Below, one piece after another: positions 15,232 through 63,601 of a stretch of DNA of 64,000 bases. The first letter of the stretch is position 1. Each line of letters opens with the position of its first letter. The notes beneath the pieces were generated by a model, which saw only the letters and a list, made by a program, of their open reading frames with translations, had not been told where the DNA came from and searched no databases. This DNA is from an uncultured archaeon (GTDB lineage: Archaea > Asgardarchaeota > Lokiarchaeia > Sigyniarchaeales > SOKP01): the NCBI GenBank assembly GCA_964525635.1, contig CAZGJX010000003.1, forward strand, positions 39,465-103,464, in the 5' to 3' direction. The translations under genes were made by a program, and so were the position numbers.

Positions 15232-15242
15232 TATATATAATT

Positions 15243-15758: not shown

Positions 15759-15999
15759 AAAGAATAAATTAATCTATAAATTTAAAAAAGGGGAATATAT
15801 TGAATCAAATAGGACTGTTTAAAAAAAAAATGATTTTAAAGAAAATTTGTTTACTCCCCTATAAAGAAATATAAATAAAAGACAAATAATCATCATAAAA
15901 TAGATTTATAAAAGAATACTTCTTTATAAATTAATCAAGCAATATATCTACTCTAAAGGTTATTTGTAATAGAGAAAAAAATAAAAAAATCATTGAGAT

Positions 16000-17502: not shown

Positions 17503-17594
17503 TTTTATTTTATACTAAATTTAAAAAGTGTGGAAAAAAATAATAGAATGGATAAAATAAATATAATTCTATTATAAAAAAAAAATGAGATAAA

Positions 17595-18032: not shown

Positions 18033-18065
18033 ATATAACTATAATTTAAGAAAAAAATCAATAAA

Positions 18066-18506: not shown

Positions 18507-18540
18507 AAGAATAAAAAAAAATAAAATTAAGAAATAGAAA

Positions 18541-19413
18541 TTAATTATTTCTAGAGAGATCTAATTCCCCGTTTAACGCCTCAGATATTCCAAACCTTTT
18601 TGCCCAATTTTGAATGAATTTTCTCCTTTTGTTAAACGTCATATCTAAAGCAATTATTCCTAAGACCATCATAAAAGCAATAAATATAGGCATAAATGGC
18701 CAAATTATATAAATTAACAGATTAGCTGCACCTCCATCTGATTCAATTGATAACAAGTGTGTATAGAAAGTATAAAAAGAGATAATAACTGCAACTCCAG
18801 CATAGCCCTTCATAAGATATATATACCACCCACCAACACTTCTAATTTCAATTGGATCAGAACGATCTCTTACTTTTTTCTTATTAGTATAAACAATTCC
18901 AGCATCCAACAAGAACCAAGTGGGAGAAAATATAGCCATAGAAACTCCCGTTATTAAAGGGAGTATTACCGAAAATGCAAGCATTTGTGCCATAGATGTT
19001 TCGGGTTCACGAAGGGTTATTTCTTGAATAGTTGAATTAGCACTAAAAACTAAACATAAATTAACTGTCAATAATGCAGGAAATAATGCTTTAAAAAAAA
19101 CTCCTTTAATTTTATTACTTTGAGCTCTATTTTGAAATCCGTATATCATCTTTCGGCCAATTGTTTTTTTATGAACAAATAAAAAGAATGGTCCAAGAAT
19201 ATAGCCACCAACTATAGCTCCAACTATACTCCCAATAATTGTAAAAATTAAAATCCATAAAGATTGAGTTCCTTGTGTAGGAACAGGAATAACTTTTGCA
19301 TAACCTTTATCTCCCCTACCTACAACATACAATGTTATAAAAATAAAAACCATCATTAAACCAATTATTATCAAATAAGGAGTTAAGATTTTCTTGTATT
19401 TTTCTATTGTCAT
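18541..19413 (-). CDS. polytopic membrane protein, unknown function
   Basis: A 290-aa ORF with several long hydrophobic segments and no catalytic motif that I recognise. Confidence 0.5.
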   Translation of the reverse strand: MTIEKYKKILTPYLIIIGLMMVFIFITLYVVGRGDKGYAKVIPVPTQGTQSLWILIFTIIGSIVGAIVGGYILGPFFLFVHKKTIGRKMIYGFQNRAQSNKIKGVFFKALFPALLTVNLCLVFSANSTIQEITLREPETSMAQMLAFSVILPLITGVSMAIFSPTWFLLDAGIVYTNKKKVRDRSDPIEIRSVGGWYIYLMKGYAGVAVIISFYTFYTHLLSIESDGGAANLLIYIIWPFMPIFIAFMMVLGIIALDMTFNKRRKFIQNWAKRFGISEALNGELDLSRNN

Positions 19414-19729
19414 TTTTTAAGAGAATTAATTATAAATTTTTGTTATAATAATTATCAACTCCATATTTTTAACTTATTTATATTCAAATGCTTAAATTTA
19501 AAAATAAAAAGAAAATATTTTTAAAAAACTGAATTTTCATCTTGAACTAATAATATGTTTATCCTCTGAATATAATAATATTAGAAGTTATATTACTTAT
19601 TTTTGGGATTAGCTAATCTATTTTTTTTCTCATTATAATATAAAATATAGTTTTTTCCCAATATTTTTTCTAATTGGGAATGGAATTGGGAATTTTTTTT
19701 TTAATCCATCTCATTCCATGTTTGATTGT

Positions 19730-20530
19730 CTAAATCAATCTTTTTTCCACTCTGTTTAGTCCTATTTCAGTTGCTAGTTCATCATGAACTCTAATATTTG
19801 CTTCTTTAATCCAAGTTTGCATTAGATCGATTATTTTCTGTGACATATATTTTGATAAGTCCTTAATATTATTTCCCACAGATTTTCTCACAGATATTGA
19901 TGGATCACTATTTAATTTAGTTAAAATATCTAAGATCTTATCATTTTGATTTGAATCTCTTAACCATTTGATTTCTGCTTTTGGTCTTAAGGATTCAGCA
20001 ACAAACCGTCTCAAATTCTGATTTTTATCATTAATCCAATTTGTTAGAACCAATAAAACATCATCAGGTTTTTTTTTTAATCCAGATAAGACACAAAAGC
20101 AGATACTCTCTCTAACAGTCCAATCATTATGATCAGCATATATTTTTATAAAGGGTACAATATCCTCAAAATTATCAGGAAAATTATAGATATATTCTGA
20201 TAAAATAAGTAAAGCAAATTGTTGTATAGATCTATTATTATAGGTTTCTCCCTATTTAAATGCTTTTTCTGATAATTCTATATAGTACTCCTTATCTATA
20301 TTGATTATTTTTTTTAAATAATTCATTATCTCTTTTGAAACATATGTAGAGATATAAGAACTCCCCTTGCCTATTCTCTCATTTTCAGGAATAATATTAT
20401 ATTCATTTTTGAGAAATAGATTCATTTTATTAAGTAATAAATTATTTTTATCGATCTTCCAACTCTTAATTCTTTTACAAAATTCTAATGTGCATTGCCT
20501 GATTAAATTTGAAGAACTTATTGATACCAT
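19730..20530 (-). pseudogene. DNA alkylation repair (AlkD-like HEAT-repeat) family gene interrupted by one in-frame TAG
   Basis: A single reading frame of 267 codons runs from 20530 to 19730 with TAG at 20252-20254. The C-terminal half reads ..WTVRESI..WINDKNQNLRRFVAESLRP..DPSISVRKSVGNNIKDLSK.., typical of the family. Confidence 0.6.
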
Positions 20531-25538: not shown

Positions 25539-28500
25539 ATAGAAAGAAAGAAAAAAAGACGATTAATATATATTATATTAATTATTGGTATATTTACAGG
25601 TGAATTTATACTCCAATGGATTATCAATATACCATTTATAGAATATTTAAGTGAAAGTGAGGTAAAAAAGTATAAAGATAATATGGGTTATTTTGCTTAT
25701 ACTCACCAAAATCCTGACAGTGGGCTTTTTGTTGAACCTTCTATCGCTTATAATTATAGAGCAATAGATTCAATTAATTTTTCTGACTCTACTTTTAAAA
25801 ATTCTAATTTAACTAATCCTATTGATAATTCTTATCTTGATGTAGAAAATAGTCAATTTTTCTTGGATTATTTATTTGAGAAGCAAAATTCAGATGGTTC
25901 TTTTTCGGATATTGGAGGAATTGGAAATATGATTTCAACTTATCAAGTTGTTAAAACTATAGATAAATTAAATAGTTCTTATTTAGATACACCAGATAAA
26001 TTGGAAAGAGTTGATAAAATTATTGATTTTATAAATATTTCTATGGGTGAGAATGGTTGGGGCTTTAAAGCTCATCCAATCGCAAATGTTTCAGATATTA
26101 TTTCAACATATTATGCAATAAAACTAGCTAAACGGTTTAATAATTATTCAATATTACAGAATAGTAACATAAGTGTATTTATAAATTCTACTAGGTATTT
26201 AGCTCAAGGAGGTTATGGCCTCACAAGTTATAGTCCCATAGTAACTCCAGAAACTACCTATTTTGGAATAAAAGCTCATCTAGAAATGGATTATAATTTC
26301 ACTTTAGAGGATTTAGTCTTACTTGAAACATTTTTTTTTTTAAGAAGAGATCTTTTAGGGGGATATAAAGACTCTATGACGGGTATAACCAATGTAATAT
26401 CAACATATTATGCACTTGCTTCACAATATCTTCTAAATATACCACTCTCTGATTCATTTGAAGAAGTTACATTAGATTTTATACTTGATTGTCAATTACC
26501 TGATGGAAGTTTTGAATATTATCTTAATGTAATTTTGGATATCCCACGATTTAAATCTGGTTGGGCTGCCATGAAAGCTATTTCTTTATTAGAATATAAT
26601 GCTACAGCACCTCTTAGCGTAGCTAATAGTGTTAAAAGCAAATATTATAATTGGTTATATAAAAATCAAGCAATGAATGGTTTAGTTGGACAAATATCTC
26701 TCCAAACAAATTATTTTGGGGTATTATCTTTACATAACTACGATATTCAGAATTATACTTATTATATTAAGATGAATGAAATCTTAAAATATGCGGATTC
26801 CTGTTACAATCCTAATGATGGTGGTTTTGGCTCTAAACCAAATTCTAATTCAACTATTTTTTCAACTTATTGTGCGATTTTTTTATATAACTTATTTCTC
26901 CCTTATAATATATCTTATCTTCCTAATGCAACAGCAACGAAATTATATTTTAAAACAATTCAAAATGAGGATGGAGGTTATAAAGTAGGTGAAGATATAG
27001 ATGTTGTTATTTCCTTCTTTGGTTCCGTATATGAGCCAATCTTACATTTAATAAATACAAATATCTCTACAGTTATAAGTACATATTGGGCATTAAGTAG
27101 TCTAAATGATCTAGATGCATTAGATATAATCAATACTACTTCTTTACAACATTGGATTTTTTCATGTCAGAATGCAGATGGAGGATATTCATTATTCATT
27201 GGATTTCATTCAGATGTAATTTCAACATATTATGGATTAGAAATTCTTAGATTCTTTAATCTAGAACCCCTTTCTAAAATAGCTGCGCTAGAATTCCTTA
27301 AAAAAGCACAATCAGAAGATGGAAGTTTCATTCTAATACCATATCTTTCGTTATTATTTGATTTACCCACTTCCTTTATTGGTAATTATTTAGGCTCAAT
27401 TTCCTTATATTATTATAGATCACAACCCCAAAACTTACCTAATCTAGCTAAGTGGTTTAGAAATTGTTTCAGTAATATTACAGGGGGAGTTGGAGATTAT
27501 CCTTTTTTTGGAGGGGATCTTAGAAATACTCCTTATGGATTACTTATAATTGATCGTATTAGATTTGATCAAGCTTTTGATCCGTTACCATGGACTCGAC
27601 TGATTTTTTGGATAATGATTTCAGAAATTATAGTACTATTGTTAATTGTGATGCTTAATATGGTTTCATATGTAAACCTATCTGTAGTTAGAATACTAAA
27701 ATTAAAATTAGGTATAGGAGACAAATTAAATGTTGAATATTTAAAAAGATATCCAGCAATATATTGTGAAAATTTAAATATCTTTGTAGGTAAAAAGCTA
27801 ATTGTTGATGGTGTATCTTTAGAATTAAATCATGGAAAAATATTAGGCGTATTAGGAGAAAGTGGAGCAGGAAAATCGACTTTTATAAAAGCTTTGTTAG
27901 GTATGAGAAAATATAAAGGTAAATGTGAAGTTTATGGGATGGATGCACGGAAAAACAGAAAGAAATTTAGACCTGTTTTTGGATATGTCCCGCAAGACTT
28001 AGGTAAAATTTATTCCAATTTTACTACTCTACAAAATTTAATCTATTTTGGAAGTCAATACGGTCTTTCTGAAAAACAAATAATTAGTAGAGCAAAAAGA
28101 TTATTAAGAAGCTTAGAGATTGAAGATAAAATAAATGAACCTGTAAAAACACTATCAGGAGGTCAAAAAAGAAGAGTTAGTATTGCAATGGCTTTAATTC
28201 ATACACCAATCTTTTGTATATTGGATGAACCTACATCTGGCTTAGATCCTGTAGTTAGAGAAAATCTATGGCTTGCACTTACTAAGATAAATGAAAGATT
28301 TAATACTACTCTTCTGGTTATTTCTCATTATCCAGAGGAATCAAGATTTTGTAATAAAGTCGTAGTATTTGGTAGAAAAAGAGGAATGATAGATTTTGGC
28401 AATCCAAAGGATTTATTAGCTCAATTACCTGGAAAAGGAAGAACTATTGAATTATCTTTTAATGATTTATATGAAAATGGAGTTCAACGTTTAGAATCAA

Positions 28501-28697
28501 TAATAGGAATTGAAAAAGCTCTTGAAAATAAAGTAGGGAAGGATTTTATAATATTAACAGATTTGAATTTAAATGAAACTAAAAATAGAATTGAAATGGA
28601 ATTCGGTAAAAACTCAATATCAGAATTGAAGCAATCTGATGCTAAAATGGAAGAATATTTTAGGTATAAAGCACTAGAAATTCAGGATTTAATTTAA
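25539..28697 (+). CDS. fusion protein: N-terminal signal anchor, prenyltransferase/terpene-cyclase-like alpha/alpha-toroid repeats, TM helix, C-terminal ABC ATPase
   Basis: At least 9 repeats of the Q..DG(G/S)F...(I/V)STYYAL type are present. The TM is WTRLIFWIMISEIIVLLLIVMLNMV. The ATPase has Walker A GESGAGKST, LSGGQKRRVS and ILDEPTSGLD. The first ATG is at 25683, but the open frame upstream encodes KKKRRLIYIILIIGIFTG. Confidence 0.75.
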   Translation: MERKKKRRLIYIILIIGIFTGEFILQWIINIPFIEYLSESEVKKYKDNMGYFAYTHQNPDSGLFVEPSIAYNYRAIDSINFSDSTFKNSNLTNPIDNSYLDVENSQFFLDYLFEKQNSDGSFSDIGGIGNMISTYQVVKTIDKLNSSYLDTPDKLERVDKIIDFINISMGENGWGFKAHPIANVSDIISTYYAIKLAKRFNNYSILQNSNISVFINSTRYLAQGGYGLTSYSPIVTPETTYFGIKAHLEMDYNFTLEDLVLLETFFFLRRDLLGGYKDSMTGITNVISTYYALASQYLLNIPLSDSFEEVTLDFILDCQLPDGSFEYYLNVILDIPRFKSGWAAMKAISLLEYNATAPLSVANSVKSKYYNWLYKNQAMNGLVGQISLQTNYFGVLSLHNYDIQNYTYYIKMNEILKYADSCYNPNDGGFGSKPNSNSTIFSTYCAIFLYNLFLPYNISYLPNATATKLYFKTIQNEDGGYKVGEDIDVVISFFGSVYEPILHLINTNISTVISTYWALSSLNDLDALDIINTTSLQHWIFSCQNADGGYSLFIGFHSDVISTYYGLEILRFFNLEPLSKIAALEFLKKAQSEDGSFILIPYLSLLFDLPTSFIGNYLGSISLYYYRSQPQNLPNLAKWFRNCFSNITGGVGDYPFFGGDLRNTPYGLLIIDRIRFDQAFDPLPWTRLIFWIMISEIIVLLLIVMLNMVSYVNLSVVRILKLKLGIGDKLNVEYLKRYPAIYCENLNIFVGKKLIVDGVSLELNHGKILGVLGESGAGKSTFIKALLGMRKYKGKCEVYGMDARKNRKKFRPVFGYVPQDLGKIYSNFTTLQNLIYFGSQYGLSEKQIISRAKRLLRSLEIEDKINEPVKTLSGGQKRRVSIAMALIHTPIFCILDEPTSGLDPVVRENLWLALTKINERFNTTLLVISHYPEESRFCNKVVVFGRKRGMIDFGNPKDLLAQLPGKGRTIELSFNDLYENGVQRLESIIGIEKALENKVGKDFIILTDLNLNETKNRIEMEFGKNSISELKQSDAKMEEYFRYKALEIQDLI

Positions 28698-41494: not shown

Positions 41495-44089
41495 ATGAAT
41501 ATATTATTTGAAAAGATCTTAAAATATAAATTTGAGATCATTTGTTTTACTATATTCTTCTATTTTTTATTATATTTAAGGGTCATTACTCCTTATCACG
41601 ATACTTACTTAGAATGGAAATTTGATCCTTATCACGATACTTACTTAGAATGGAAATTTGATTGGGATTTTTATAGACTTATGTACAACGATATAACAAT
41701 TGTCTTTAACCGGGAGAACCCAGAGGTTATAGCTCCTTTTTGCTATAGGATTTTAACACCACTTGTAGTAAGATTATTTCCTTTTGAAGACATGACTTTA
41801 AACTGGGGATTATATAGTTTTATTTTTATTTATTTAACGGGTATAGTGCTTTATTTTATATTTAGAATTTATTTCAATAAATATATCTCAATGGTGGGAC
41901 TTATTTTATTCTGTTATTTGTGCTTTACCTCTCCAACGATTCCTTCATTTGGTGATAGTATATATGATTATTATTTTATGCAATACTATTTTTACATGGT
42001 TTTTCATGTTGATCCTTTAGCGTATTTTCTTTTAATGTTATGTTTCTATAGTATTTTAAAATCAAATAAAAAATTATTTTGTATTTCTCTCTTATTAGGT
42101 ATATTAACAAAAGAATCTATTCTATTCACAATTCCGGTGTATTTAATCCATGAATATTTAAAGAGAAGAAAAATCAAGAATCGAGAAAAATCAATCTATA
42201 ATTTTCTAAACGGTTTTAAACCCATAGTACCAACTATATTAATCTTTATTTTAATGAGAATTATAATTACTCCAAAATCTTCCTTAGAAGAAGTCTATTG
42301 GGATGAATACTATCAAGGAAATGAATATATGTCATTAGGAATGATAGAAGTGTTATTAAAGTATTTAATTTCCGATTATCATGATTTTGGCTGGGGTATA
42401 TTGGATTATTCAATTCTTTTTTGGAGTCCACTATTATTTATTTTATTTTGTTTTAATAAAAAGAAAGATGTCTTCAATTGGTTTAAATTATATAGTGTTT
42501 TTATAGCTGCTATATATTTTCAAATGATGATAGCAGGTGAAAGATCTCGTGCTCTCTTTTTTGGTTTTTTCCCAATACTTTTATTAGCGGTTTCTGGAGT
42601 AAATAATATTTATGAAATTATCCAAAAAAAAATCAATTATCGAAAAGCAAAAAAAGAGAATAATAACTTACCAATTAAAGAGGTTTTAATAAAAAAAGAA
42701 GAATTAATCCCATTGGATCCTATTTCACAATCCCAATTATTTTTTAAGCATCCTATTCTTCCAGAGGTACTTTATGGTGCTGTTATTTTAAGAGGGAAGT
42801 TGAAATTGGATGTATTAAATAATTCATATAAAAAAGTTATGGAAAAAAATCCTCATCTTCACGATATTTTAATTAAAAAGCGTGTGGGTGTGTTTTATAA
42901 AATATTTAGAAAACCTATTCAACCTCTCCCAATAGGAGAAATTAATTTGGTAAATTCAAATCTTCCATATCGGGAAAGATTACTTGAACATTTTAAATCT
43001 TCATTATCTAAGCATATTGATCCATTTAGAGAACCGACTTTTTATGCATATTATGTAAAATTAGATGAAAATATATTTGCTATTGCTTACATTTCTCATC
43101 ATACTACATTGGATGGAATTGGATTTGTAAATTTTTATCAGGAATTATTTTCATATTATTATAAAGAAATCTATAAAAAAGAAAGTGAGTGGTCGAAGTC
43201 AGTAGGATTTATAAGCCTTAGAGATAAAAAAAATGAGGGTAATATAAAAATGGTCCCTTTAATTAAGCCACGATTTTCAATTAAAAAAACTATAAAAACA
43301 ATAACAGTATTTTTATCATTTAGAAAAGCCCGAAAATTCACAATAAACCGTCCTTTATCTGAACTAAGCCATGCAAACCTTTTAAAAATCGAAAAAAATA
43401 CTTTAAAGAAAATAAAACAATATGGAAAATCACTTAATTCTACTGTAAATGATGTTTTATTAGCATTATTATTTAGAACACTCTTTATTATATTTCCTGA
43501 GATAGAGAATAAAAAAAAAACCCATTATACAATAAGCGTACCAATTAATATTAAGAAAAAAATATCACCTAATAAAAGGATTATAAATAACATGACAAGC
43601 CTTTTTATTAGCATAGAAGGTTCTCAATTTAGAAATGTGGAAAAGATACTTAAAATAATAAACACAACCAAGAAAAAACAAATTGAAATGGGATTAGATA
43701 TTTATCAATATCATGTTTTACGCATATTATTAAAAATCACTCAATTATTTCCCTTTAATCTAAGTCGGAAATTATTTCATAAGTTATTTCAATTCCCATT
43801 TACGTCATTATTTAGTAATTTTGGGATATTATGGCCTGAAATTGTTGATGGAGGCGTTACGGGGAAAAGTTTCTTAACAAAAATTGGAGACGAACTTGAA
43901 ATATTAGATGTAGATTTGGGTTATTCTCTACTTCCCCATATTGGACATGAATTTGTTACTTTTACTTATCGAGAGCAACTTCATATTTATCTTTCTACTT
44001 ATGATGCATTTTTTTCTAAAGAACAATCAAAAAGATTTATAGATGTATTCCATCAAGAAATAGAAAAATTATCAAATAAAAAAAGCTAA
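41495..44089 (+). CDS. fusion of a polytopic membrane domain with a condensation/WS-DGAT-like acyltransferase domain
   Basis: The N-terminal ~390 aa are hydrophobic. The C-terminal half carries ISHHTTLDGIGF (HHxxxDG) and TVNDVLLALLFRTL. Confidence 0.6.
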   Translation: MNILFEKILKYKFEIICFTIFFYFLLYLRVITPYHDTYLEWKFDPYHDTYLEWKFDWDFYRLMYNDITIVFNRENPEVIAPFCYRILTPLVVRLFPFEDMTLNWGLYSFIFIYLTGIVLYFIFRIYFNKYISMVGLILFCYLCFTSPTIPSFGDSIYDYYFMQYYFYMVFHVDPLAYFLLMLCFYSILKSNKKLFCISLLLGILTKESILFTIPVYLIHEYLKRRKIKNREKSIYNFLNGFKPIVPTILIFILMRIIITPKSSLEEVYWDEYYQGNEYMSLGMIEVLLKYLISDYHDFGWGILDYSILFWSPLLFILFCFNKKKDVFNWFKLYSVFIAAIYFQMMIAGERSRALFFGFFPILLLAVSGVNNIYEIIQKKINYRKAKKENNNLPIKEVLIKKEELIPLDPISQSQLFFKHPILPEVLYGAVILRGKLKLDVLNNSYKKVMEKNPHLHDILIKKRVGVFYKIFRKPIQPLPIGEINLVNSNLPYRERLLEHFKSSLSKHIDPFREPTFYAYYVKLDENIFAIAYISHHTTLDGIGFVNFYQELFSYYYKEIYKKESEWSKSVGFISLRDKKNEGNIKMVPLIKPRFSIKKTIKTITVFLSFRKARKFTINRPLSELSHANLLKIEKNTLKKIKQYGKSLNSTVNDVLLALLFRTLFIIFPEIENKKKTHYTISVPINIKKKISPNKRIINNMTSLFISIEGSQFRNVEKILKIINTTKKKQIEMGLDIYQYHVLRILLKITQLFPFNLSRKLFHKLFQFPFTSLFSNFGILWPEIVDGGVTGKSFLTKIGDELEILDVDLGYSLLPHIGHEFVTFTYREQLHIYLSTYDAFFSKEQSKRFIDVFHQEIEKLSNKKS
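41591..41662 (+). repeat. perfect 36-bp tandem duplication (2 copies), in frame
   Basis: ccttatcacgatacttacttagaatggaaatttgat occurs at 41591-41626 and again at 41627-41662, encoding PYHDTYLEWKFD twice. Confidence 0.95.
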
Positions 44090-53618: not shown

Positions 53619-55679
53619 TTATTCGATATAAACTACCAGTAGTTCTTTTAAATTAATAAAATTTTTAAAAGAATTAACTAAATTTCCTTTTTCTAAGTCA
53701 TCTAATCCATGGTTATTCAATTTAGTAATCTTTTCTTTTAATTTTCCGTATTTGTGGAGTTCTAATAACCCATAATGATTTTTTACCTTTTCTATTGCCA
53801 TTGGACCAATATTCCATTTTATTAGATTACTTGAATTCGATTTTGTAATTTTTTTAGGCTTTATATTTTTTGGTTCAATTATAATATTTATAAAATAATT
53901 AGGGATAATATCTTCTATAACAATACTCTCTAATTGTTTTCCATATCTATTATTAAAGTGCATTTTTACATCATAATGACCTTCAATTTCTCGATTTTCT
54001 ATATTTGAATGAGTTTTTATTAAGTTAATTTGATTTTCTATAATAAAAATAATCGTTCTTGAGATTCTTTTTTGTAACTTATATGTTATTTCAAATTTTT
54101 CCTTTTTCTTTACTTCTTGAACATTCCATATTAATTCTAGTCCTGAACCCGTTAAAGTTTTTTTAGGTGATTTACCTTGATCAACAGGATTACCATTTAA
54201 TTCAATATTTGTAAGCTCAAAATTATAAGGAATAAGATCTGTTAAGATCCCTTCTTTAATAATATCATTAAAGGAGTTTTCAAAACCAGATATTACCTGA
54301 AAACTTGATATTTTATCAGATTCATTGTCATTTTCCTTTATATTTCGGATATTGATTTTTTTTTTTAACTCAATAATTTCGCCAGAAGCACTTGTAAGGA
54401 CGTATTTATTCAAAATTTCATTTTTAATCTCAACTCGATGGTGGTCTAATAATGAATTTATTTGTTTAAACATCTCTTTTTTATCATCAGATAAATCACC
54501 TACAAGTTTTTTTACGGAATATTTATCAATTATGGGTAAAATATCTTCATCTGTTTCTATTATGTTATTAAGTTCTTTAGCTTTTTCAATAAATTTTGAT
54601 ATTTGATTTTTTCTTAGCTCTTCTGATTCTTTTAAATTTGTTTTTAAATTATCAGATAATTGATTATACTTACTTTCCTTATCCTTATCTTCAATTTCCT
54701 TAACTAATTTTATTATATTTTTACAAATAGAGATTGATCTGAGGATATGATTATTATTTTGTGATTCTTCAAGTTTCTTTTCTAATTCTTGAAGATTTTT
54801 AATTTTTGTGTTATATATTTCCTCAAGAGTAGATATATCATTCTTGATATTTTCTAATTTTTTAAGTTGTTCGGGTAAATCTTTATTTTTTAATTTTTGG
54901 ATGATTGAGGTTAATTCAATTCTTGCTTCAGTATAACGCTTATTTTCTTTTAGAATCTTACATTCAGATATTACATTAGCTATATCCCTTTTTAATTGAT
55001 TTAAATCTTTAATATGGATATATCTTTCTTCGAAATTGCTCCATTTTTTGAGAATATCATCATCATATATTTCTTTCAGAAAATTTTTAGATTCATTTAA
55101 GATCTGTTCTACTGATTTAAGATCGTAAGAATCTAAAGAATTAATAATTCTTTTTTCAAGTTTAGCTAGATCCTTTTTAATAGTGTCTTGTTTCTTTTTA
55201 AATTCCTCCCAATTTTCTTTCTCTTCAATGAAAAGTGCCCTAATATCAGAAATAGATTCAAGTTTTACTTTAGTTCCATATTTTTTTTTGAAATCTATGA
55301 TCAAATTATGTGCTTGAAATATTTTCTCTTGTTCTGTTAAATTAATAAATTGAGTTTTTAATCTTTCATAAATAGTATTAATCTCTTTAGTTAATTTTCT
55401 TTTTTCTATTAATAATTCACATTTCCTAATATATTCTTCTTGTTCTTTAACAATTGATGGTAAATTGCCTTCTTTAGCAAGTTCTATTATATCCTTAGTT
55501 ACTTTTATTGCTTCTAAGAAATCTCCAAGCATAAAACAATTATTTTGAGGTATTGTTAAATCTTCAATTCTTTCGAGATATACCATTTTTTTCTTAATTA
55601 TCTTTTTCTTCTTTTTTTTTTCTATATCATACTCTTCTTCTTTATTTTCTTCTACATTATTCTCTTTCATAATCATCAC
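53619..55679 (-). CDS. long coiled-coil protein with a conserved C-terminal beta-rich module (paralog of 55680-57611)
   Basis: K/E-rich heptad-like sequence spans about aa 40-380. The C-terminal ~300 aa are collinear with the paralog (ILPII.(K/E)YSV, H(H)RV(E/K)I, L(T/I)DL(I/V)PYNFE(L/I)TNI, RRISRTII(F/Y)I). Confidence 0.5.
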   Translation of the reverse strand: MMIMKENNVEENKEEEYDIEKKKKKKIIKKKMVYLERIEDLTIPQNNCFMLGDFLEAIKVTKDIIELAKEGNLPSIVKEQEEYIRKCELLIEKRKLTKEINTIYERLKTQFINLTEQEKIFQAHNLIIDFKKKYGTKVKLESISDIRALFIEEKENWEEFKKKQDTIKKDLAKLEKRIINSLDSYDLKSVEQILNESKNFLKEIYDDDILKKWSNFEERYIHIKDLNQLKRDIANVISECKILKENKRYTEARIELTSIIQKLKNKDLPEQLKKLENIKNDISTLEEIYNTKIKNLQELEKKLEESQNNNHILRSISICKNIIKLVKEIEDKDKESKYNQLSDNLKTNLKESEELRKNQISKFIEKAKELNNIIETDEDILPIIDKYSVKKLVGDLSDDKKEMFKQINSLLDHHRVEIKNEILNKYVLTSASGEIIELKKKINIRNIKENDNESDKISSFQVISGFENSFNDIIKEGILTDLIPYNFELTNIELNGNPVDQGKSPKKTLTGSGLELIWNVQEVKKKEKFEITYKLQKRISRTIIFIIENQINLIKTHSNIENREIEGHYDVKMHFNNRYGKQLESIVIEDIIPNYFINIIIEPKNIKPKKITKSNSSNLIKWNIGPMAIEKVKNHYGLLELHKYGKLKEKITKLNNHGLDDLEKGNLVNSFKNFINLKELLVVYIE

Positions 55680-57611
55680 TTATTTTATTTTATATTCCTT
55701 AAATTGATTAATGATTTTTTCATAGAATTGTAATGTTTCTAATAAATTGCCATTATTTAAGGAATTAATACCATCTCTAGCAAGATCTTTAATGCTATTT
55801 TTTAGTTCCTCATATTTATATAATTCCATTAATCTATAGTTAAAATTAAGAACATTTTTTTCTATATTCTCGATAGACCATTTAATAATATTACCTATTT
55901 CAGTTTCATTTTGTTCTGAAGGTAATATATTTTTAGGTTCTTTAATTGAACTGATATAATACGAGGGGATAATATCTTCTATAACTAATCCATTTAATTG
56001 GTTTCCATATGAATTATTAAAAGGCATTTTTGCTTCAAATATACCCTCTAATTGAAGGGAATTTAAATTATTATGTGTATTGATTATTTTTATTTGATCG
56101 TTAAAAATATATATAATAGTTCTTGAAATTCGCCTGCGAAGTTGATAATTAATTTCGATATTTTCTTTCAGTTGGATATTTTCAAGTTTCCATTTATATT
56201 CTATTCCATCTTTAGTAAGTTGTTTATCGGGAGTTTTTTCTACTTCTTTATTATTTATTTTTATATTAGTGATCTCAAAATTATATGGGACTAAATCTAT
56301 AAGAATTGCTTCTTCAATTATCTCATCAAAGGGATTAGAAAATCCAGAATGCCCATATAATAGCAATTTTTCATTATTTTTATTTATTTTTTTTATTTCC
56401 GTGTCTTTTTCGAATTCATGAATTTCTCCTGATAAGCCAAAAAGGAATACTTTAGTTTTTATATTTTTATTTATTTTTACACGATGTTTTTCAAGTAAAA
56501 CTCCAAGTTTTTCAAGTTTCTTATTAGGTTCTTTACTTAAGTTTTCAAGAATTTCACTTACAGAGTATTCATATATTATTGGTAATGTATTCTCATTAAC
56601 CTCTATAACTTTTTTTATTTCTTTCATTTCATTGATTAATTGCTCAGATTCAATCAGTTTTTCCTTATTCTTTTCTTCTAATTCAGATTTAATTTCTTTT
56701 AGAACTAACTTATATTTTTCTTTGATCTCAGACTTTTTATGCTCTTCTGAAATGTTAATTAATTTCTCACATATTTTTAAAGCGGCATATAATTGGGATT
56801 TTTCACGATTTGTATTTAAATTTGTTTCTAGATTTTCAATCTTATTAAAAAAAACTTCATTTTTTTCTTTGAATTTTATTAAATCATTTTTTAGATTAAC
56901 AAGATTCTCTTCATAGCCTTGAATTTCGTTTTCTTGAATTAGTTTTAAAGAGTTTTCAATTTTTGACAAAATAGCATCATATTGATCTTGATTCCATGAT
57001 TTAATTAATTCTTTCTTAGAGGTTTCTATTTCATTTAGAGCTTGTTCCACTTGCTTATTTATATTCCTCCTCTTTACTTCACTGATAAAATCCTCTTGAT
57101 CAATTATGATCGATCTATCATCAAAATTTTGTGCTAACTGAATTATTTTATCTGAAATTTCAATTGCTTGGTTATATTCTTCAGAAAGGAGATATTTATC
57201 TGCTTGAGTCTTTAAATCATCTATTTCCGACATTATAGGAAATAATTTATTTTCTTGATCTTCTATTTTTTTAGTGAGCTGTTCCTTTGTTATTGTAATT
57301 CCACCAGTTTTCATACTATCAAAAAAATCTTGAGTTTCTGATTTTGCATCAATTGTTATATTTCGGAGTATTCTTAATTCAGGGTAGCTTTTCAAAAAAA
57401 TTGCTCTAACACTCGCAATATAATTTTTCAATGATTCAGATACATATTCCCCAACCCAGATATAAAGACGTTTCTGTTTGAATATATATATAGCTAAGAG
57501 GGATACAACTGAAAAATAATCGAGAATATTTTCGGGATTCTCATTTTCTTCACAACTTTCAAAACTCCCACGATATCGTAGACGAAAAATCTTTATTCCA
57601 GAGGATTGCAT
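55680..57611 (-). CDS. gelsolin-like N-terminal domain + coiled coil + C-terminal beta-rich module
   Basis: The N-terminal 100 aa read IKIFRLR..DYFSVVSLLAIYIF..KRLYIWVGEYVSESLKNYIASVRAIFLKS..ITIDAKSETQDFFDSMKTG. This parallels the gelsolin-homology pattern (IWR..F..DaYiL..lh.WlG...s.dE...AA......r..V.qg.Es..F..yFk.G). Confidence 0.5.
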   Translation of the reverse strand: MQSSGIKIFRLRYRGSFESCEENENPENILDYFSVVSLLAIYIFKQKRLYIWVGEYVSESLKNYIASVRAIFLKSYPELRILRNITIDAKSETQDFFDSMKTGGITITKEQLTKKIEDQENKLFPIMSEIDDLKTQADKYLLSEEYNQAIEISDKIIQLAQNFDDRSIIIDQEDFISEVKRRNINKQVEQALNEIETSKKELIKSWNQDQYDAILSKIENSLKLIQENEIQGYEENLVNLKNDLIKFKEKNEVFFNKIENLETNLNTNREKSQLYAALKICEKLINISEEHKKSEIKEKYKLVLKEIKSELEEKNKEKLIESEQLINEMKEIKKVIEVNENTLPIIYEYSVSEILENLSKEPNKKLEKLGVLLEKHRVKINKNIKTKVFLFGLSGEIHEFEKDTEIKKINKNNEKLLLYGHSGFSNPFDEIIEEAILIDLVPYNFEITNIKINNKEVEKTPDKQLTKDGIEYKWKLENIQLKENIEINYQLRRRISRTIIYIFNDQIKIINTHNNLNSLQLEGIFEAKMPFNNSYGNQLNGLVIEDIIPSYYISSIKEPKNILPSEQNETEIGNIIKWSIENIEKNVLNFNYRLMELYKYEELKNSIKDLARDGINSLNNGNLLETLQFYEKIINQFKEYKIK

Positions 57612-57815: not shown

Positions 57816-59000
57816 TTATTTTAAAAAATCTTCAATAAGATTATATACCGTTTCAAGTGTCTCTAAATCAGGTAGAAATGTTAATCTTAAATGATTCTTT
57901 CCGAAGTTTCCAAAACCTGAACCAAACACAGTACAAATACCAGTTTCTTTTAATAATTCAATAACGAATTCCTTATCATTTTTCCATTTTTTAAACTCAT
58001 TAAAATCAATCTTAGGAAAGAGATAAAAAGCACCATCAGCATTGTTAACTGAGATTCCTTCAATTTGTCTCAATCTTTTATATGAATAATCTCTTCTTTC
58101 TTTTAATTTTTCAACCATTTTATTGGTGTGAGGGCCGGGATTTTTTAGTGCCTCAATAGCAGCAAATTGAGCAATTGAATTTGCACATAGTCTTGCTCTA
58201 GCCATTTTCTCTATTGATTCTTTCAGTTCAATTAATTGCTCCTTTGGATCATAATAATAAATGTAGCCCATCCTCCAACCTGTAGCAAGATGAGCTTTTG
58301 AAAATCCATTTAGTCCAATAATTGGTATATCCTCTGTAAGAGTTGCTGGACAAAAATATTCTTTTTCAAAAACAATTTGATCATATATCTCATCTGAGAT
58401 AATTGGTATTTTGTATTCTCCTGCTAGATTTATTATATCTTTCATATTTTTAGAATTATATAAGACACCTGTAGGATTATTTGGAGAATTAATTATAATT
58501 GCTTTAGTTTTTTGTGTTATCTTTTTTCTCATATCATCAACATTTGGCTCCCAATCATTTGATTCATCAAGTTCATACTCTATAGGAACGCCATCAAAGA
58601 ATTTAGAATAAGTAATATAAATTGGGTAGGAAGGACCTGGGACTAAAATCTCATTTTGTTTTTCTAATAATCCTGCTAGTAAGAAAAATAATCCTTCTGT
58701 TACTCCTGAAGTTATTAAAATATCATTTGGTGTTATATCAATTGAATTTTTTGATTTTTCATACTTACATACTTCTTTTCTCAATTCAGGAACACCAAGG
58801 GAATCCACATAATAATTTTGCCCTGCAAAAGTCGCATCTGCTAACGCTTGTGAGATATATCTGGGTGTCATAAAGTCATATTTTACTGGATCGCCGATGT
58901 TTAAATGATATATTTCCTTCCCAGATCTCTCGACTTCATTAGCTATAACCGCAATATCTCTAATTGCATAAGAAATATCTTTTAATCTTTCCGTAACCAT
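57816..59000 (-). CDS. class I/II pyridoxal-phosphate aminotransferase (aspartate/alanine aminotransferase-like)
   Basis: Has NSPNNPTG, GFSKAHLATGWRMGY (PLP lysine) and an R near the C-terminus. Confidence 0.9.
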   Translation of the reverse strand: MVTERLKDISYAIRDIAVIANEVERSGKEIYHLNIGDPVKYDFMTPRYISQALADATFAGQNYYVDSLGVPELRKEVCKYEKSKNSIDITPNDILITSGVTEGLFFLLAGLLEKQNEILVPGPSYPIYITYSKFFDGVPIEYELDESNDWEPNVDDMRKKITQKTKAIIINSPNNPTGVLYNSKNMKDIINLAGEYKIPIISDEIYDQIVFEKEYFCPATLTEDIPIIGLNGFSKAHLATGWRMGYIYYYDPKEQLIELKESIEKMARARLCANSIAQFAAIEALKNPGPHTNKMVEKLKERRDYSYKRLRQIEGISVNNADGAFYLFPKIDFNEFKKWKNDKEFVIELLKETGICTVFGSGFGNFGKNHLRLTFLPDLETLETVYNLIEDFLK

Positions 59001-59173: not shown

Positions 59174-62100
59174 TTGACGGTCATAGAAGGAAAATACGCA
59201 TATCCATATATAACAGTATTCAAGAAAGAACCTTTTCAATCCTTTCTTACTGTAAAAAAACAAGATATAGGATTATTTTATTTTAGTCAATATGAGAAGG
59301 TTTTAGAATTTTTGAATTATTTTACAGAGAATCTCTTTTTTATTCAATCATTAAATCTTGAAGATATTTATTGGTATTTATTATTGAAGAAATATTTAAA
59401 CGTGACTATAGAACCAGGTATTAAAGCAAAGATTTATGATTTTATTAAGGGTTGTGAAATAGATAAAGATGGAAAATTAGGATTTAAATTCTCTCTTCAT
59501 AAGGAACAAAAACAACCAGATATTTGGTCAACTTATTTAGCGATTTCAAATCTTTATTTATTGGGTGATCTTAGTTTATATCTTAAAACTAAAGGAGAAG
59601 GTATTGTTTTAACTCAAATAAAAGATTTTATTTCTTTACTTGATAAAGGAGATAAGTTCATACACTGTCTTGAAAAAGATTGTGAAATTTGTAAAAAAAA
59701 CCTATCTTATAAAACGTTATATTATGTCTTAGAAATTTTATTTTTATTAAATCTGGAAGTTAGAGAACATAAATCTAAATTTTCATCATATTTAAAGGAT
59801 TTGAAAAAAGATCCTTCTATAATTTTTAAATTATTAAGTCTTAAATTTTTGGATCTCGATCTTAATATTGATGAGAAATTTCTTCATTATTTGCTTGATT
59901 TTCAAAAAGATAATGGAGGTTTTAGTTTTAAAACTGTCAATGGGAAGGTTAATACGACCTTTTGGATAACCTATGTTTTAAACAATTATATATGGCTAAT
60001 GGATTATAATCCTTCAGGAATATATTCATTCATTAATTTACATTTAAATCAAATACTAAAAGATAAATCTTCTTGCTCCTCGAAAAGACTAATAGAAGTC
60101 TCAAAACTAATCATTATCCTTTCTATAATTTGGGATAAATTAATTGAAGAAATTGAGTCTGTATTATTCAAACAAATTGAAGAAAATAGATATATTGATA
60201 TTAAACAATTAAAAAACTCGTTTGGATTATCTGAAGGAATAGAAGAAATTGTGTCATATATTAATTTAAATTATTCGTTTAATCTTAAGATACTAGATAA
60301 TAATATAGAATTCAAGAATTATTTGAGAAGTCTTACCCCAGGAGATAAGTTTCTAGCTTCTGAAGTTTTTAACCAAAGTCAAAAAAAGAGTATAATCTCT
60401 TTGACGAATATTATGAATAAATACAATATGAAATACAATAAAGCGCAAATTAAAATAAAAGATTTTATCCCAATCATAAAAAAAATGATTGAAAATCATT
60501 TGTTAAAGGGTGAAATAAAGACTAAGAAAAAATATCTCTTTGTAACCAAATACTATTTTTATTTAGATTTTGTTTTAGAAAAAATAATAATCTCAGATAT
60601 GGCTATAAAATGCGAGCAATTATTCGAAGAAAAGAAGATCATTGAGGACATTAAAAATGATATTTATAATATGACTCTTAAACTTAAAACTACGGTTTCA
60701 CAAATTAAGGAGGAAATCGAAAGTTATTTATTAATTAATGAGATAAAAATAGCTAAAGATAGGTTAAAATTTATTACTAGAAATGCTCTTATGGAATCCG
60801 ATTTTTTGAATGAAAATATAGAAAACTCATTTAATGAAGAGTTATATTATATCAATATTCAAGCAACTTTAAGATCTGAAATAACTAATTGGCACAAAAC
60901 TTACTCTGTTTTAAGTAAAAGAATAAATAATATTGAATTGCAATTAAAAGAGAAAATATCTGAGAGAGAAGAAATTAGTAAGTTTGACAATATATTAGAT
61001 GAATTGGATAATAAGCTTAGTAATTTAGAAAATTATTTTAATAAGGAGATTGATAGTTTTCGTATATTTTTAACCACAACACTAGAAGATGGCTATAATT
61101 CTGAGAAATTTAATTTGATAGTGGAAGAATTCAATAAGATCATAAAAAGTATGGCAAAATTTGATAGTGTAATTTATAATGTTTCTCAACAAATTACAAA
61201 AAAGGAAGAAAGTCTGCTTAAAAAACATAAACAATTAATATCCTATTGGATTGGTATTAAAGAGGATCTAGATAAAGTAATTAATTTTTATTCCGAAGGT
61301 TTGCTCTTTTTTAAAGAGAAAATTAAATTAACTGAGAAAATACTTGATGAAGTAAAATATGAACTCTTAGCGATAAATGAAAAAGCACAAGAAAAAGTTA
61401 GAACGAATGACTTTCAAAATGCATTTGAAATTATCAAAAAGGAATCAGGGATACTTTTAGAAAAAAATCTTGAAGAAATAAAAACACTTCATAAAGAAGT
61501 AAAAAAAGAAATAAAATCAAAACATAAGCTCTATATACTTTTTCGATTTCTACAAGAAAAGATAGAAGAGTTAGAAGAAAAAATAATTGAAATTATCTCT
61601 AAGGGAACTTATTCTTTAAAAGAAAAATTAGTTGAAGAGAGAAATAGAGTAAAAATTGAAGAATTTGATAATTTTGTTTCTGAAAAAATTAGTTTAATTA
61701 GAAAAGGTCTAACAGATTATAAAATTCAATTAGAACATACAATTAAAACATCAAAATTAGATATTCAAGATGTTATAAAGGGTTTTGATGATATCTTAAA
61801 TGAATTCGAGGAATTTAACTCAATATATCTAAAGAAATTAAATAAGAATCAGGATATCATAGAAAAGATAGATGAAAAATCAAATCTTACAGTTATGCAA
61901 TGGGAAAGGTTCCGCGAATACGTTAGAAATGAAATAACAAACTTGAAAGAAGAATACATAAATGAAATTCTTAGCGTGAAAATTCTTTTTATAGCTGAAA
62001 ATAAAGGTTCAAATTATGTGAATATAAAAGAACTTGCGAGAAAGTTGAATATAAAATGTAAGGAAGCTAGTGACAGAATTAGGGAAATGATTGAAATCTC

Positions 62101-63601
62101 TAGACTCAACGGGGAGATTAATGAGGATGATAAATTTGTATTGATTTTTACTAATTATTATTATAAAAATAAAGAGCTAAGAAATTTCATTTATAATCAA
62201 ATAATTAAATACAATAATGAGACAATAGGTAAGACGTTATCTCTTTATGATTCATGTATTAAAAATAGAACCTTGGGAATAAATATGCTGGAGCTCTCAA
62301 ATAGGATAAATGAATTGGAAGATTTTGACGAAAAAATGCAAGAGAGATTCGAAAATAAAGTAAAAGAACTTATTATTGATATTGAGAGTAGAAAAGAATT
62401 TAAAGAAACAAAAGATTATTTCAGAAATATTATTGATGATTCAAAAAGCGGAATTGAAAATATTAAAAATAATCTAAATCAATTTAAATCACTTCAAAAT
62501 CTTGTTAATATAGAATATAATAATTTAACAATTGATTTTAGTCAAAAATTCCAAAAAATAGAAGAAGATCTTGATAAATTAGATACTTTCGAGAAAATGA
62601 ATGCTTATTTCGAAAGTATTAAAGTTAAGCTGGAAGAAAAAATAAAAGAAAGACAAGAAAAACTTGAGATTAAACTTAAAGATTCAATTGAAAAAAATAG
62701 TGAAACCATAAAATTAAATCCTGAAATAAGAGAATTCTTTGTTAAAAAGAAAAATATTTTTTTGCATGATTATGATGAGAAAATAAGGAATATAAATTAT
62801 AAAATTAGTCGAAAGAAAAATGAAATTCTTCAGGGAGAATTGCTAGATTTTATCAATAATAGTAAAATCCAACTAAACCAATTATTGGGTGTATTGCAAA
62901 CAAGAATAGAAGATGATGTTGAAGTAAAGGAATTTAAAAGAGCGACTAATAACATTGATAAGAGAATAACCAATATTAAAGTTCTATTGAAAATAAATAA
63001 AAGAAATTTGAAGGATCTTATTAGAGATATTAGTAGACAAGCAAAAGATTTTGAAACCAAGAATAAATATATCTTAGATGATTTTAACCAATATTTAATA
63101 GAATATAAATCAATTTTACTTGAGAAAGCTAAAACTCTTGAAAGATATATTTTAAGATCATTCATAGAAATGGCTATTAAGGCCGTTTCAAATGAATATC
63201 TAACCCTAGGTTTTATGAATAAAGAAATAGCAATAAAAAAGCAAAACATTCAAGATCATCTCTTAACTTTAATTAGTCAGGATAAATTAAAAGGTAAATA
63301 TGATCCTCGGTTGGGATTATATTATGAAAATCCTGATGTTATCGAAAATTTAGATGAAACTGAACTAGAAGTTATGAAGAAAATGAATTATAAAGTCTAT
63401 ATGTTCATGAACCGTCTAAAAAATTTTACCAGCCATTATTATTCAATTATTGGATTCTTTGCTAGTATGTTCACACTTAGTTACTATTTATTGTTATTTA
63501 GTGGATGGAATCTCGCTGTATTAATCATTCCTATATTAATTATTATTGTATTATTTTATTATCTATTCACAAGAAGAAAAGAAAAGAAAATGGATATTTG
63601 A
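59174..63601 (+). CDS. 1475-aa protein: prenyltransferase-like alpha/alpha-toroid repeats, winged-helix-like inserts, ~1000-aa coiled coil, C-terminal double TM anchor
   Basis: Has ..DKDGKLGFKFS..PDIWSTYLAISNLYLLG.. and ..FQKDNGGFSFK..NTTFWITYVLNNY... A long K/E/I/N heptad-like region follows. The C-terminus reads YYSIIGFFASMFTLSYYLLLFSGWNLAVLIIPILIIIVLFYYLF. The start is TTG. Confidence 0.55.
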   Translation: MTVIEGKYAYPYITVFKKEPFQSFLTVKKQDIGLFYFSQYEKVLEFLNYFTENLFFIQSLNLEDIYWYLLLKKYLNVTIEPGIKAKIYDFIKGCEIDKDGKLGFKFSLHKEQKQPDIWSTYLAISNLYLLGDLSLYLKTKGEGIVLTQIKDFISLLDKGDKFIHCLEKDCEICKKNLSYKTLYYVLEILFLLNLEVREHKSKFSSYLKDLKKDPSIIFKLLSLKFLDLDLNIDEKFLHYLLDFQKDNGGFSFKTVNGKVNTTFWITYVLNNYIWLMDYNPSGIYSFINLHLNQILKDKSSCSSKRLIEVSKLIIILSIIWDKLIEEIESVLFKQIEENRYIDIKQLKNSFGLSEGIEEIVSYINLNYSFNLKILDNNIEFKNYLRSLTPGDKFLASEVFNQSQKKSIISLTNIMNKYNMKYNKAQIKIKDFIPIIKKMIENHLLKGEIKTKKKYLFVTKYYFYLDFVLEKIIISDMAIKCEQLFEEKKIIEDIKNDIYNMTLKLKTTVSQIKEEIESYLLINEIKIAKDRLKFITRNALMESDFLNENIENSFNEELYYINIQATLRSEITNWHKTYSVLSKRINNIELQLKEKISEREEISKFDNILDELDNKLSNLENYFNKEIDSFRIFLTTTLEDGYNSEKFNLIVEEFNKIIKSMAKFDSVIYNVSQQITKKEESLLKKHKQLISYWIGIKEDLDKVINFYSEGLLFFKEKIKLTEKILDEVKYELLAINEKAQEKVRTNDFQNAFEIIKKESGILLEKNLEEIKTLHKEVKKEIKSKHKLYILFRFLQEKIEELEEKIIEIISKGTYSLKEKLVEERNRVKIEEFDNFVSEKISLIRKGLTDYKIQLEHTIKTSKLDIQDVIKGFDDILNEFEEFNSIYLKKLNKNQDIIEKIDEKSNLTVMQWERFREYVRNEITNLKEEYINEILSVKILFIAENKGSNYVNIKELARKLNIKCKEASDRIREMIEISRLNGEINEDDKFVLIFTNYYYKNKELRNFIYNQIIKYNNETIGKTLSLYDSCIKNRTLGINMLELSNRINELEDFDEKMQERFENKVKELIIDIESRKEFKETKDYFRNIIDDSKSGIENIKNNLNQFKSLQNLVNIEYNNLTIDFSQKFQKIEEDLDKLDTFEKMNAYFESIKVKLEEKIKERQEKLEIKLKDSIEKNSETIKLNPEIREFFVKKKNIFLHDYDEKIRNINYKISRKKNEILQGELLDFINNSKIQLNQLLGVLQTRIEDDVEVKEFKRATNNIDKRITNIKVLLKINKRNLKDLIRDISRQAKDFETKNKYILDDFNQYLIEYKSILLEKAKTLERYILRSFIEMAIKAVSNEYLTLGFMNKEIAIKKQNIQDHLLTLISQDKLKGKYDPRLGLYYENPDVIENLDETELEVMKKMNYKVYMFMNRLKNFTSHYYSIIGFFASMFTLSYYLLLFSGWNLAVLIIPILIIIVLFYYLFTRRKEKKMDI

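Follow-up and report, generated by a model that had tools for sequence, protein, structure and literature searches.

A conserved 1475-aa protein family

The window, as we call the whole 64,000-nucleotide stretch of Asgard archaeal DNA analysed here, is AT-rich (GC content 22–32%) and carries on its plus strand a complete open reading frame (ORF; 59174–63601, 4,428 nt including the stop codon, with a TTG start) that encodes a protein of 1475 amino acids (aa), the subject of this report. The genes on its upstream side are, in order, a LeuA-like gene, a C13 peptidase gene, a pair of paralogous genes for 686- and 643-aa proteins (53619–57611, minus strand) and an aminotransferase gene (57816–59000, minus strand). 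This layout, with the aminotransferase between the pair and the ORF, is as described in an earlier note on this DNA, which had depicted the 1475-aa protein as a golgin- or tether-like coiled-coil giant, the pair as gelsolin-like, and the region from 53.6 to 63.6 kb as a cytoskeleton/membrane-organisation locus.

The ORF that the note had picked out is certainly a genuine, strongly constrained gene, because a search of 5.8 billion protein clusters returned at least 184 clusters of homologues, the homologues align over nearly the full length, and the N-terminus (MTVIEGKYAYPYIT) is common to the orthologues and the 1475-aa protein. The best 120 of the at least 184 relatives were used for the orthologue statistics, for the MAFFT alignment and as input to AlphaFold2 (AF2). 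These 120 orthologues, all from metagenome bins of Lokiarchaeota (Promethearchaeota is the NCBI phylum name), are 46–100% identical to the 1475-aa protein over 94–100% of its length (coverage is 98–100% except in three truncated entries), their lengths range from 1,395 to 1,504 aa, and gaps are nearly absent along the whole alignment. They are annotated as ‘hypothetical’, ‘conserved membrane protein of unknown function’ or ‘prenyltransferase/squalene oxidase repeat-containing protein’.

A profile built from aa 1–1180 of six orthologues and searched with HMMER against 1.84 billion representative proteins (E ≤ 1e-3) recovered 93 proteins, all of one family. Every named match among the 93 is from Lokiarchaeota/Promethearchaeota or Helarchaeota, and no prenyltransferases, other Asgard classes or eukaryotes are found among the identifiable matches. 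The full-length members grade continuously from 43% to 17% identity, with a length of ∼1,430–1,500 aa kept in most of those at 17–25%. Judged by sequence searches, this is a narrow family specific to Lokiarchaeota and Helarchaeota; a full-text literature search found no published description of it.

We also scanned one genome per GTDB species with a sequence pattern: 55 loci were recovered, and the gene is present in all 55 (genomes without the gene were not counted). Loci L015, L016, L021, L025, L035, L037, L040, L049, L056 and L061 come from bins of one series (JBHL... accessions) that are labelled as Hod-, Thor-, Hermod- or Odinarchaeota. We suspect that these labels are unreliable, because the copies are 44–48% identical to the 1475-aa protein and show the Lokiarchaeota gene order. 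L015 and L016 carry different phylum labels, yet have identical match coordinates and percent identities.

Modules of the protein

The order of modules proposed in the earlier note (a toroid head, then winged helices, a long stretch of helix and an anchor at the C-terminus) matches the anatomy that we obtained from AF2 models and Kyte–Doolittle hydropathy; all features below are on the plus strand. The head comprises aa 40–338 (59291–60187). In the AF2 model of aa 1–480, built from the 120-sequence alignment (predicted local distance difference test score, pLDDT, of 91; predicted template modelling score, pTM, of 0.87), it consists of ∼13 helices and three short beta-hairpins. When this model was compared with the PDB by Foldseek, the top 17 matches were all beta subunits of FTase, GGTase or RabGGTase (E 2e-4 to 2e-3, probability 1.00, ∼340 columns, 12–16% identity); the next matches were class II terpene cyclases and the complement TED domain. 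Three prenyltransferase-type repeats are recognisable (GKLGF...PDIWSTY; GDKF...; NGGFSF...TTFW), and, as in the beta subunits, the GGF-type repeat hairpins are followed by inner helices that start with D-x-aromatic. The Pfam family Prenyltrans (PF00432) matches the 1475-aa protein at aa 45–167 below its gathering cut-off (23.8 versus 26.5 bits), and seven divergent family members score above it (39–77 bits). The head is thus modelled as an alpha/alpha toroid of the prenyltransferase beta type, as the note had supposed, and the repeats it had placed at 59440–60050 (aa 90–293) fall inside this domain.

The most conserved positions family-wide, even at 17% overall identity, are those of an H164-C165-x4-C170-x2-C173 motif (59663–59692) in the loop of the second toroid repeat: they are invariant or near-invariant in the 120 orthologues and are kept in 26–29 of the 29 divergent full-length members. 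Weak zinc-ribbon Pfam matches fall on the corresponding loop of a distant member (P0184). The motif is a putative zinc knuckle, probably structural rather than catalytic because four conserved ligands lie in one short loop; four-ligand zinc sites in general fit a structural role. The catalytic zinc of prenyltransferase beta subunits is bound by a triad, the Asp and Cys of a D-x-C motif and a His ∼50 residues later. This triad is unrecognisable in the family, judging by the only profile alignment with RabGGTase beta, which falls short of significance (E 0.12) and in which D116-I-W118 stands opposite the enzyme's D-V-C with no conserved His after it. Neither of the terpene-cyclase/synthase motifs DxDD and DDxxD occurs in aa 1–340, and profiles of the family and of the head gave nothing significant against PDB sequences (the insignificant matches are RabGGTase beta, E 0.01–0.12, apolipoproteins, the TRIM25 coiled coil and the DDRGK1 winged helix). 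The head further differs from the beta subunits in its context: they are parts of soluble heterodimers, whereas it is the tip of a membrane protein, and no alpha subunit is evident beside the family gene in six loci. By predicted structure it is a member of the prenyltransferase toroid superfamily, but probably not by function.

A second toroid-type protein is encoded elsewhere in the window (25683–28697, plus strand): this 1,004-aa protein has about nine canonical prenyltransferase-type repeats (Pfam Prenyltrans, 97 bits), followed by a hydrophobic segment (∼aa 638–665) and an ABC-transporter ATPase domain, an unusual toroid–ABC fusion. We rejected the idea that its toroid and the head of the 1475-aa protein are close paralogues, as their similarity reaches E 0.017 only.

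The head is preceded by a peptide (aa 1–39; 59174–59290), KYAYPYITVFKKEPFQSF, that is near-invariant in Lokiarchaeota orthologues (K7, A9–T14, F16–F21, S23 and F24). Residues 7–24 are near-invariant although the AF2 pLDDT is below 50 at residues 1–12 and averages ∼61 at residues 11–20; residues 21–39 are modelled with high confidence. Going by the model, the N-terminal half of the peptide is probably unfolded, and the peptide, whose conservation does not extend to the distant, Helarchaeota-type members, may act as a short linear motif for docking.

Four winged-helix-like units are modelled: two in tandem at aa 343–405 and 406–474 (within aa 339–476; 60188–60601; AF2 pLDDT 83–95), a third at aa ∼948–993 (62015–62152) and a fourth, highly conserved, at aa ∼1341–1392 (63194–63349). 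The earlier note had mentioned two short winged-helix-like inserts; the fold stands, but there are four such units and they are PCI-like. The peptide quoted there corresponds to aa 948–982 of the third unit, modelled as strand-helix-helix-strand-strand. Weak Foldseek matches of aa 340–480 include the tandem winged helices of Stn1, PCI proteins and cullins. The equivalent of the third unit scores above the Pfam PCI cut-off in one member (P0168, 38.7 bits), and in another, distant member (P0164) it scores above the HTH_24 cut-off (29.7 bits; AsnC-type, 26.7 bits). On the fourth unit, PCI (PF01399) gives a sub-threshold 18.2 bits at aa 1323–1378 (cut-off 22 bits), and a precomputed PF01399 match exists for ∼14 of the 120 orthologues. 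All four units share the pattern L-x-G-x-[IY]-[DN]...hydrophobic wing, read from the sequence, and all four are PCI-like.

Between the winged helices runs a rod (aa 477–1340) of ∼860 residues of helix, rich in K/E/I/N, 36–38% charged and 9–10% aromatic. It is divided by the third winged helix into arm 1 (aa 477–947; 60602–62014), with helices of 41-29-70-31-64-36-74-30-41 residues, and arm 2 (aa 994–1340; 62153–63193), with helices of 37-14-15-62-34-73-36-40 residues (DSSP on the AF2 model). The model of aa 476–1475 has a pLDDT of 82 (∼80–90 in the rod helices) and a pTM of 0.36, with no confident packing between domains. Throughout the rod the helices measure 14–74 residues, and long (62–74) and short (29–36) ones alternate with a period of ∼105–120 residues. 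Among the 120 orthologues the helix breaks sit at conserved positions without indels, and rod identity is at least 46%. Within arm 1, aa 567–678 and 784–903 align in register as an internal repeat (hhalign probability 86%, E 5e-6); the ∼25 residues best conserved across the family include Trp573, Trp692 and Trp910, all three close to where a long helix begins. A duplication relating the two arms was considered and found only weakly supported: the arm ends plus winged helix show weak colinear similarity (hhalign probability 12–34%).

The note had described ∼1000 residues of heptad-like sequence. The K/E/I/N-rich composition holds, and so does a heptad signal (of the rod's 42-residue windows, 35% show significant hydrophobicity of heptad period, compared with 5% expected and 0% in the head), but the region consists of two segmented arms of alternating long and short helices. 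Helices of at most 74 residues, conserved breaks without indels, 9–10% aromatics, the internal repeat and the conserved Trp residues argue, at the level of sequence and model, for repeated intramolecular helical bundles rather than one dimeric coiled coil of variable length.

Consecutive three-helix bundles joined by continuous helices show such an alternation of long and short helices, and the spectrin repeat measures ∼106 residues. The rod resembles spectrin repeats and EzrA in its alternating helices (∼62–74 and ∼30–36 residues), in its ∼105–120-residue period and in the recurring Trp near helix starts, and it resembles EzrA also in being, by prediction, membrane-anchored and cytoplasmic. 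This likeness is one of helix lengths and recurring Trp. There is no Pfam Spectrin match, and neither spectrin nor EzrA is among the Foldseek PDB matches. Moreover, EzrA is anchored at its N-terminus and the 1475-aa protein at its C-terminus, and the arms of the latter are interrupted by winged helices. The best, weak, Foldseek matches of the rod model are PCI subunits of the proteasome lid (Rpn), the COP9 signalosome (CSN) and eIF3 (E 6e-3 to 0.1, root-mean-square deviation 17–45 Å), i.e. proteins with helical repeats plus a winged helix rather than long coiled coils. As modelled, the protein has, like PCI subunits, a helical region followed by a winged helix, and the PCI model matches the third and fourth winged helices of the family, though the matches are weak. 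It is unlike them in having four winged helices per chain, helical parts far longer than PCI solenoids, and a membrane anchor.

The C-terminus contains a conserved basic helix (aa 1403–1421; 63380–63436; AF2), presumed to be interfacial, just before two hydrophobic helices at aa 1423–1442 (63440–63499; Kyte–Doolittle peak 1.74) and 1447–1468 (63512–63577; peak 3.03), both helical in the AF2 model. The helices are separated by a 4-residue turn (consensus FSGxNP) and followed by TRRKEKKMDI, of which the last 7–9 residues (RRKEKKMDI) make up a basic tail (63578–63598) directly after the second helix. The two hydrophobic helices that the note had seen at 63446–63570 (aa 1425–1466), with the basic tail behind them, are therefore recovered by hydropathy and AF2 alike, and hydrophobic hairpin helices with basic tails are also present in distant members. 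The segment is predicted to be a two-helix hairpin in the membrane with both ends in the cytoplasm, because both flanks are basic and the positive-inside rule applies. No signal peptide is found in the 1475-aa protein; therefore the 1,420-residue N-terminal part should be cytoplasmic. The tail anchor claimed by the note is supported as to a membrane anchor at the extreme C-terminus, but tail-anchored proteins are defined by having just one transmembrane domain, at the C-terminus (PMC9932932), and here there is a hairpin of two helices.

A subgroup from Helarchaeota (P0184, P0188 and P0197; 1,230–1,355 aa) lacks the hairpin. These proteins end instead in a ∼140-aa, conserved, alpha/beta-looking domain with the motif SGFLxAIQxF...W.GEL, which also occurs by itself as ∼206-aa proteins in Helarchaeota and Lokiarchaeota. 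A longin identity of this domain is only a lead: a single weak match to Fuz_longin_1 (Fuz/Mon1; E 0.034) was not reproduced in 18 homologues or in PDB sequences.

The scaffold reading and its alternatives

We read the 1475-aa protein, tentatively and with chances a little short of even, as a lineage-specific, non-enzymatic, membrane-anchored modular scaffold or tether; this reading is better supported than each of the rivals weighed below. What the data show are the gene and its conservation, the domain folds as predicted, the hydrophobic helices, the phyletic range and the missing synteny with the gelsolin-like pair; its topology, bundle packing, zinc binding, non-catalytic head and scaffold or spacer function are what we infer. 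In such a scaffold the last ∼55 residues would form a helical hairpin, with the N-terminal mass and the short tail facing the cytoplasm, and insertion would be post-translational, since the hairpin does not emerge from the ribosome until translation ends. Two stiff arms would project from the membrane as antiparallel helical bundles, in units of ∼105–120 residues with a spectrin-like long/short pattern, each arm capped by a PCI-type winged helix that would serve as joint and/or docking site. At the far end, beyond two more winged helices, would sit the toroid, stiffened by the His-Cys3 zinc knuckle and serving to bind either a ligand, hydrophobic or isoprenoid, or a partner protein. The protein may in this way keep the membrane and the targets of the head and the winged helices a set distance (tens of nm) apart, a role suggested by its strictly conserved length. 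The combination of toroid, zinc knuckle, four PCI-like winged helices, two repeat arms and C-terminal hairpin is undescribed in the literature searched.

Several observations weigh against this reading. Cluster, profile and literature searches found no characterised homologue. Membrane anchoring is not universal in the family, given the Helarchaeota subgroup without the hairpin. The conserved D116, T120, F263 and W264 at the starts of inner toroid helices could equally serve catalysis. As for the rod, Foldseek gives no PDB fold match at E < 1e-3, and the 1475-aa protein has no match to Pfam Spectrin (PF00435) at E ≤ 0.1.

The design has a partial parallel in proteins of the atlastin/Sey1/mitofusin type, which likewise have a large cytoplasmic N-terminal part with helical bundles, two close transmembrane helices and a short cytoplasmic tail; the 1475-aa protein, however, has no GTPase domain and no sequence similarity to them, and its tail is only ∼8 residues long. 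A more elaborate version of the scaffold reading, which we think unlikely in its full detail, would make the protein an Asgard (Lokiarchaeia)-specific membrane-skeleton or tether protein, a hairpin-anchored molecular ruler built of spectrin-like three-helix-bundle repeats and PCI joints. Its toroid would hold on to a second structure (a membrane, a protrusion, actin filaments or the nucleoid) by an isoprenoid lipid there or by a protein partner, lipid-modified or not, so that it would be a prokaryotic, convergent counterpart of golgins, spectrins and atlastin-type organisers, and the Helarchaeota subgroup would have swapped the hairpin for a soluble alpha/beta recruitment domain.

The strict form of the earlier note's idea, i.e. 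a parallel homodimeric coiled coil with a C-terminal anchor, a head that captures vesicles or membranes, and a shared locus with gelsolin-like proteins, seems to us decidedly improbable. The layout does follow the design of golgins and other C-terminally anchored coiled-coil tethers such as giantin, golgin-84 and CASP (PMC4707255): a very long helical cytoplasmic protein with a distinct, distal N-terminal end and a hold on the membrane at the extreme C-terminus. Heptad periodicity is enriched in the rod, and the gene adjoins the paralogous pair both in the window and in the closest relative. However, no helix of the rod is longer than 74 residues, and the breaks between them are conserved; the rod is aromatic-rich (9–10%), virtually free of indels, strictly conserved in length and at least 46% identical among orthologues, whereas golgin coiled coils are variable and dimeric. 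The anchor is a hairpin of two transmembrane helices, whereas golgins, which bind Rab/Arl GTPases and capture vesicles, are held by one or by a GRIP/GRAB-type GTPase-binding domain; the chain carries a globular toroid and four winged helices, and the host is an archaeon without a known Golgi. Nor is there a golgin Pfam match, or any eukaryotic or other Asgard relative in the profile search. The gelsolin-like pair, for its part, is found in none of 55 related loci, is already gone at 70% identity, and has no gelsolin match at its N-terminus in Pfam or PDB sequences. The likeness to golgins is, on the sequence evidence, analogy only and not homology, because the profile search of 1.84 billion proteins found, among matches with a source name, no relative outside Lokiarchaeota and Helarchaeota.

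About equally improbable is a membrane-tethered enzyme, in which the toroid would use zinc to catalyse a reaction of the prenyltransferase, LanC or cyclase type on a lipid or a protein thiol, with the rod only positioning or regulating it. The best fold matches of the head are indeed catalytic prenyltransferase beta subunits and class II terpene cyclases and, by analogy with FTase and RabGGTase structures, the conserved Cys/His cluster and the aromatics at inner-helix starts may lie where prenyltransferases bind zinc and isoprenoid. The match amounts to 12–16% identity and three recognisable repeats, though; D116-I-W118 stands opposite the D-x-C zinc ligands (in the one insignificant alignment to RabGGTase beta), the crowding of four conserved ligands into a single short loop points to a zinc site that is closed and structural, and DxDD and DDxxD motifs are missing. 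No conserved alpha-subunit-like partner adjoins the gene in six loci (the genomes were not searched), and it is not obvious why an enzyme should need another 1,100 residues of conserved length. Somewhat less improbable, if still doubtful, is a PCI-type assembly platform, with the four winged helices packed side by side within or between chains, in the manner of the proteasome lid, the COP9 signalosome and eIF3, into a compact or oligomeric membrane hub from which the arms radiate instead of forming an extended rod. The PCI subunits among the rod's best fold matches, the PCI score of P0168 above the cut-off (sub-threshold in the window's protein and ∼14 of 120 orthologues) and the wing pattern common to all four units speak for it; yet none of these fold matches reaches E 1e-3, their deviations are 17–45 Å, and the low pTM reflects no confident inter-domain packing. 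The gene has no MPN/JAB partner next to it (in two relatives, a Prok-JAB gene is found ∼8 kb off), and we know of no MPN partner or multi-subunit context of the 1475-aa protein. The least probable of these readings, a long shot in our view, is a membrane–nucleoid tether or membrane-bound regulator, whose winged helices would bind DNA so that the hairpin fixes DNA, or sequesters a regulator, at the membrane. It draws on the third winged helix of the distant member, which scores above the cut-off for DNA-binding winged helix-turn-helix (wHTH) domains, and on a convergent, Hef-like DNA repair helicase gene next door in 38 of 55 loci. But such a winged-helix pattern is equally typical of protein–protein modules (PCI, ESCRT-II, cullin), the recognition helices show no marked basic character (e.g. 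KCKEASDRIREMIE), convergent orientation means no operon link, and the Helarchaeota locus lacks that helicase.

If the scaffold reading holds, a Lokiarchaeota-type protein predicted to project tens of nm from the inner face of the membrane is a candidate membrane-organising or spacing element. The cells of Lokiarchaeota-type Asgard archaea are unusually complex in shape and possess an actin cytoskeleton, and to our knowledge very few membrane-associated structural proteins have been described from them. The bearing would be on lineage-specific cell architecture and not directly on eukaryogenesis, because the family has no homology to eukaryotic tethers and is not detected in other Asgard classes. 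The head would also represent a non-standard use of the prenyltransferase toroid, as the terminal module of a structural protein.

Genomic neighbourhood

The proposal of a joint cytoskeleton/membrane locus depended on the paralogous pair and is not supported, since the pair does not travel with the family gene; a lack of synteny in other genomes is among the outcomes that the note itself had named as refuting its idea. Orthologues of the pair were seen only in the closest relative (L004; 76% identity to the 1475-aa protein). At 70% identity (L003) the C13 peptidase gene is directly followed by the aminotransferase gene and then the family gene, and the pair is likewise absent from L005, L002 and L001 (58%, 56% and 47% identity). 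We searched the 55 species loci for the neighbours of the window's gene by tblastn: the C13 peptidase was found in 29, the aminotransferase in 14, LeuA in 11 and the pair in none. The pair, present only in the window and L004, gone at 70% identity and missing from all 55 loci, has thus been inserted recently into an otherwise conserved housekeeping neighbourhood, where it separates the gene for the C13 peptidase from that for the aminotransferase; its adjacency to the family gene is a recent accident of gene order. The two proteins are paralogous (39–42% identity over ∼400 aa) and have no Pfam match above cut-off (there is one sub-threshold TetR-C match). A gelsolin identity for the N-terminus of the 643-aa protein was not upheld, with no Pfam match and no significant match to PDB sequences (no fold-level test was made).

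The commonest neighbour is the convergent helicase gene, immediately downstream in 38 of the 55 species loci. It encodes a Hef-like protein of ∼720 aa (NCBIfam PRK13766, 523 bits, below the equivalog cut-off of 610), lies ∼3 kb downstream of the match in L007–L061 (e.g. 15086–17254 on the minus strand of L003) and falls outside the window, which ends at 64000. As far as gene content indicates, the conserved context is of a housekeeping type, and the defence-system models of PADLOC match neither the 1475-aa protein nor the two proteins of the pair. A conserved upstream partner was also considered and dropped: L001 and L002 have genes of 217 and 236 aa at this position, which show no relation to each other and have no counterpart in the window. 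The Prok-JAB gene ∼8 kb from the family gene in two relatives is part of a generally conserved gene order.

In the Helarchaeota locus (L006), the family member is followed ∼1 kb downstream by the gene (15383–19834, plus strand) for a second large protein of 1,483 aa, with a transmembrane segment at ∼aa 1220–1258 and a C-terminal wHTH (PF24409, 25 bits); the two proteins are unrelated. Elsewhere in the window we observed two tandem, paralogous TPR-repeat proteins of ∼730 aa (10105–12309 and 12482–14677, plus strand; MalT-like TPR region), a 923-aa protein with a DUF4379 treble-clef zinc finger (7084–9855, minus strand) and an 864-aa protein with a weak match to the condensation domain of non-ribosomal peptide synthetases (41495–44089, plus strand).

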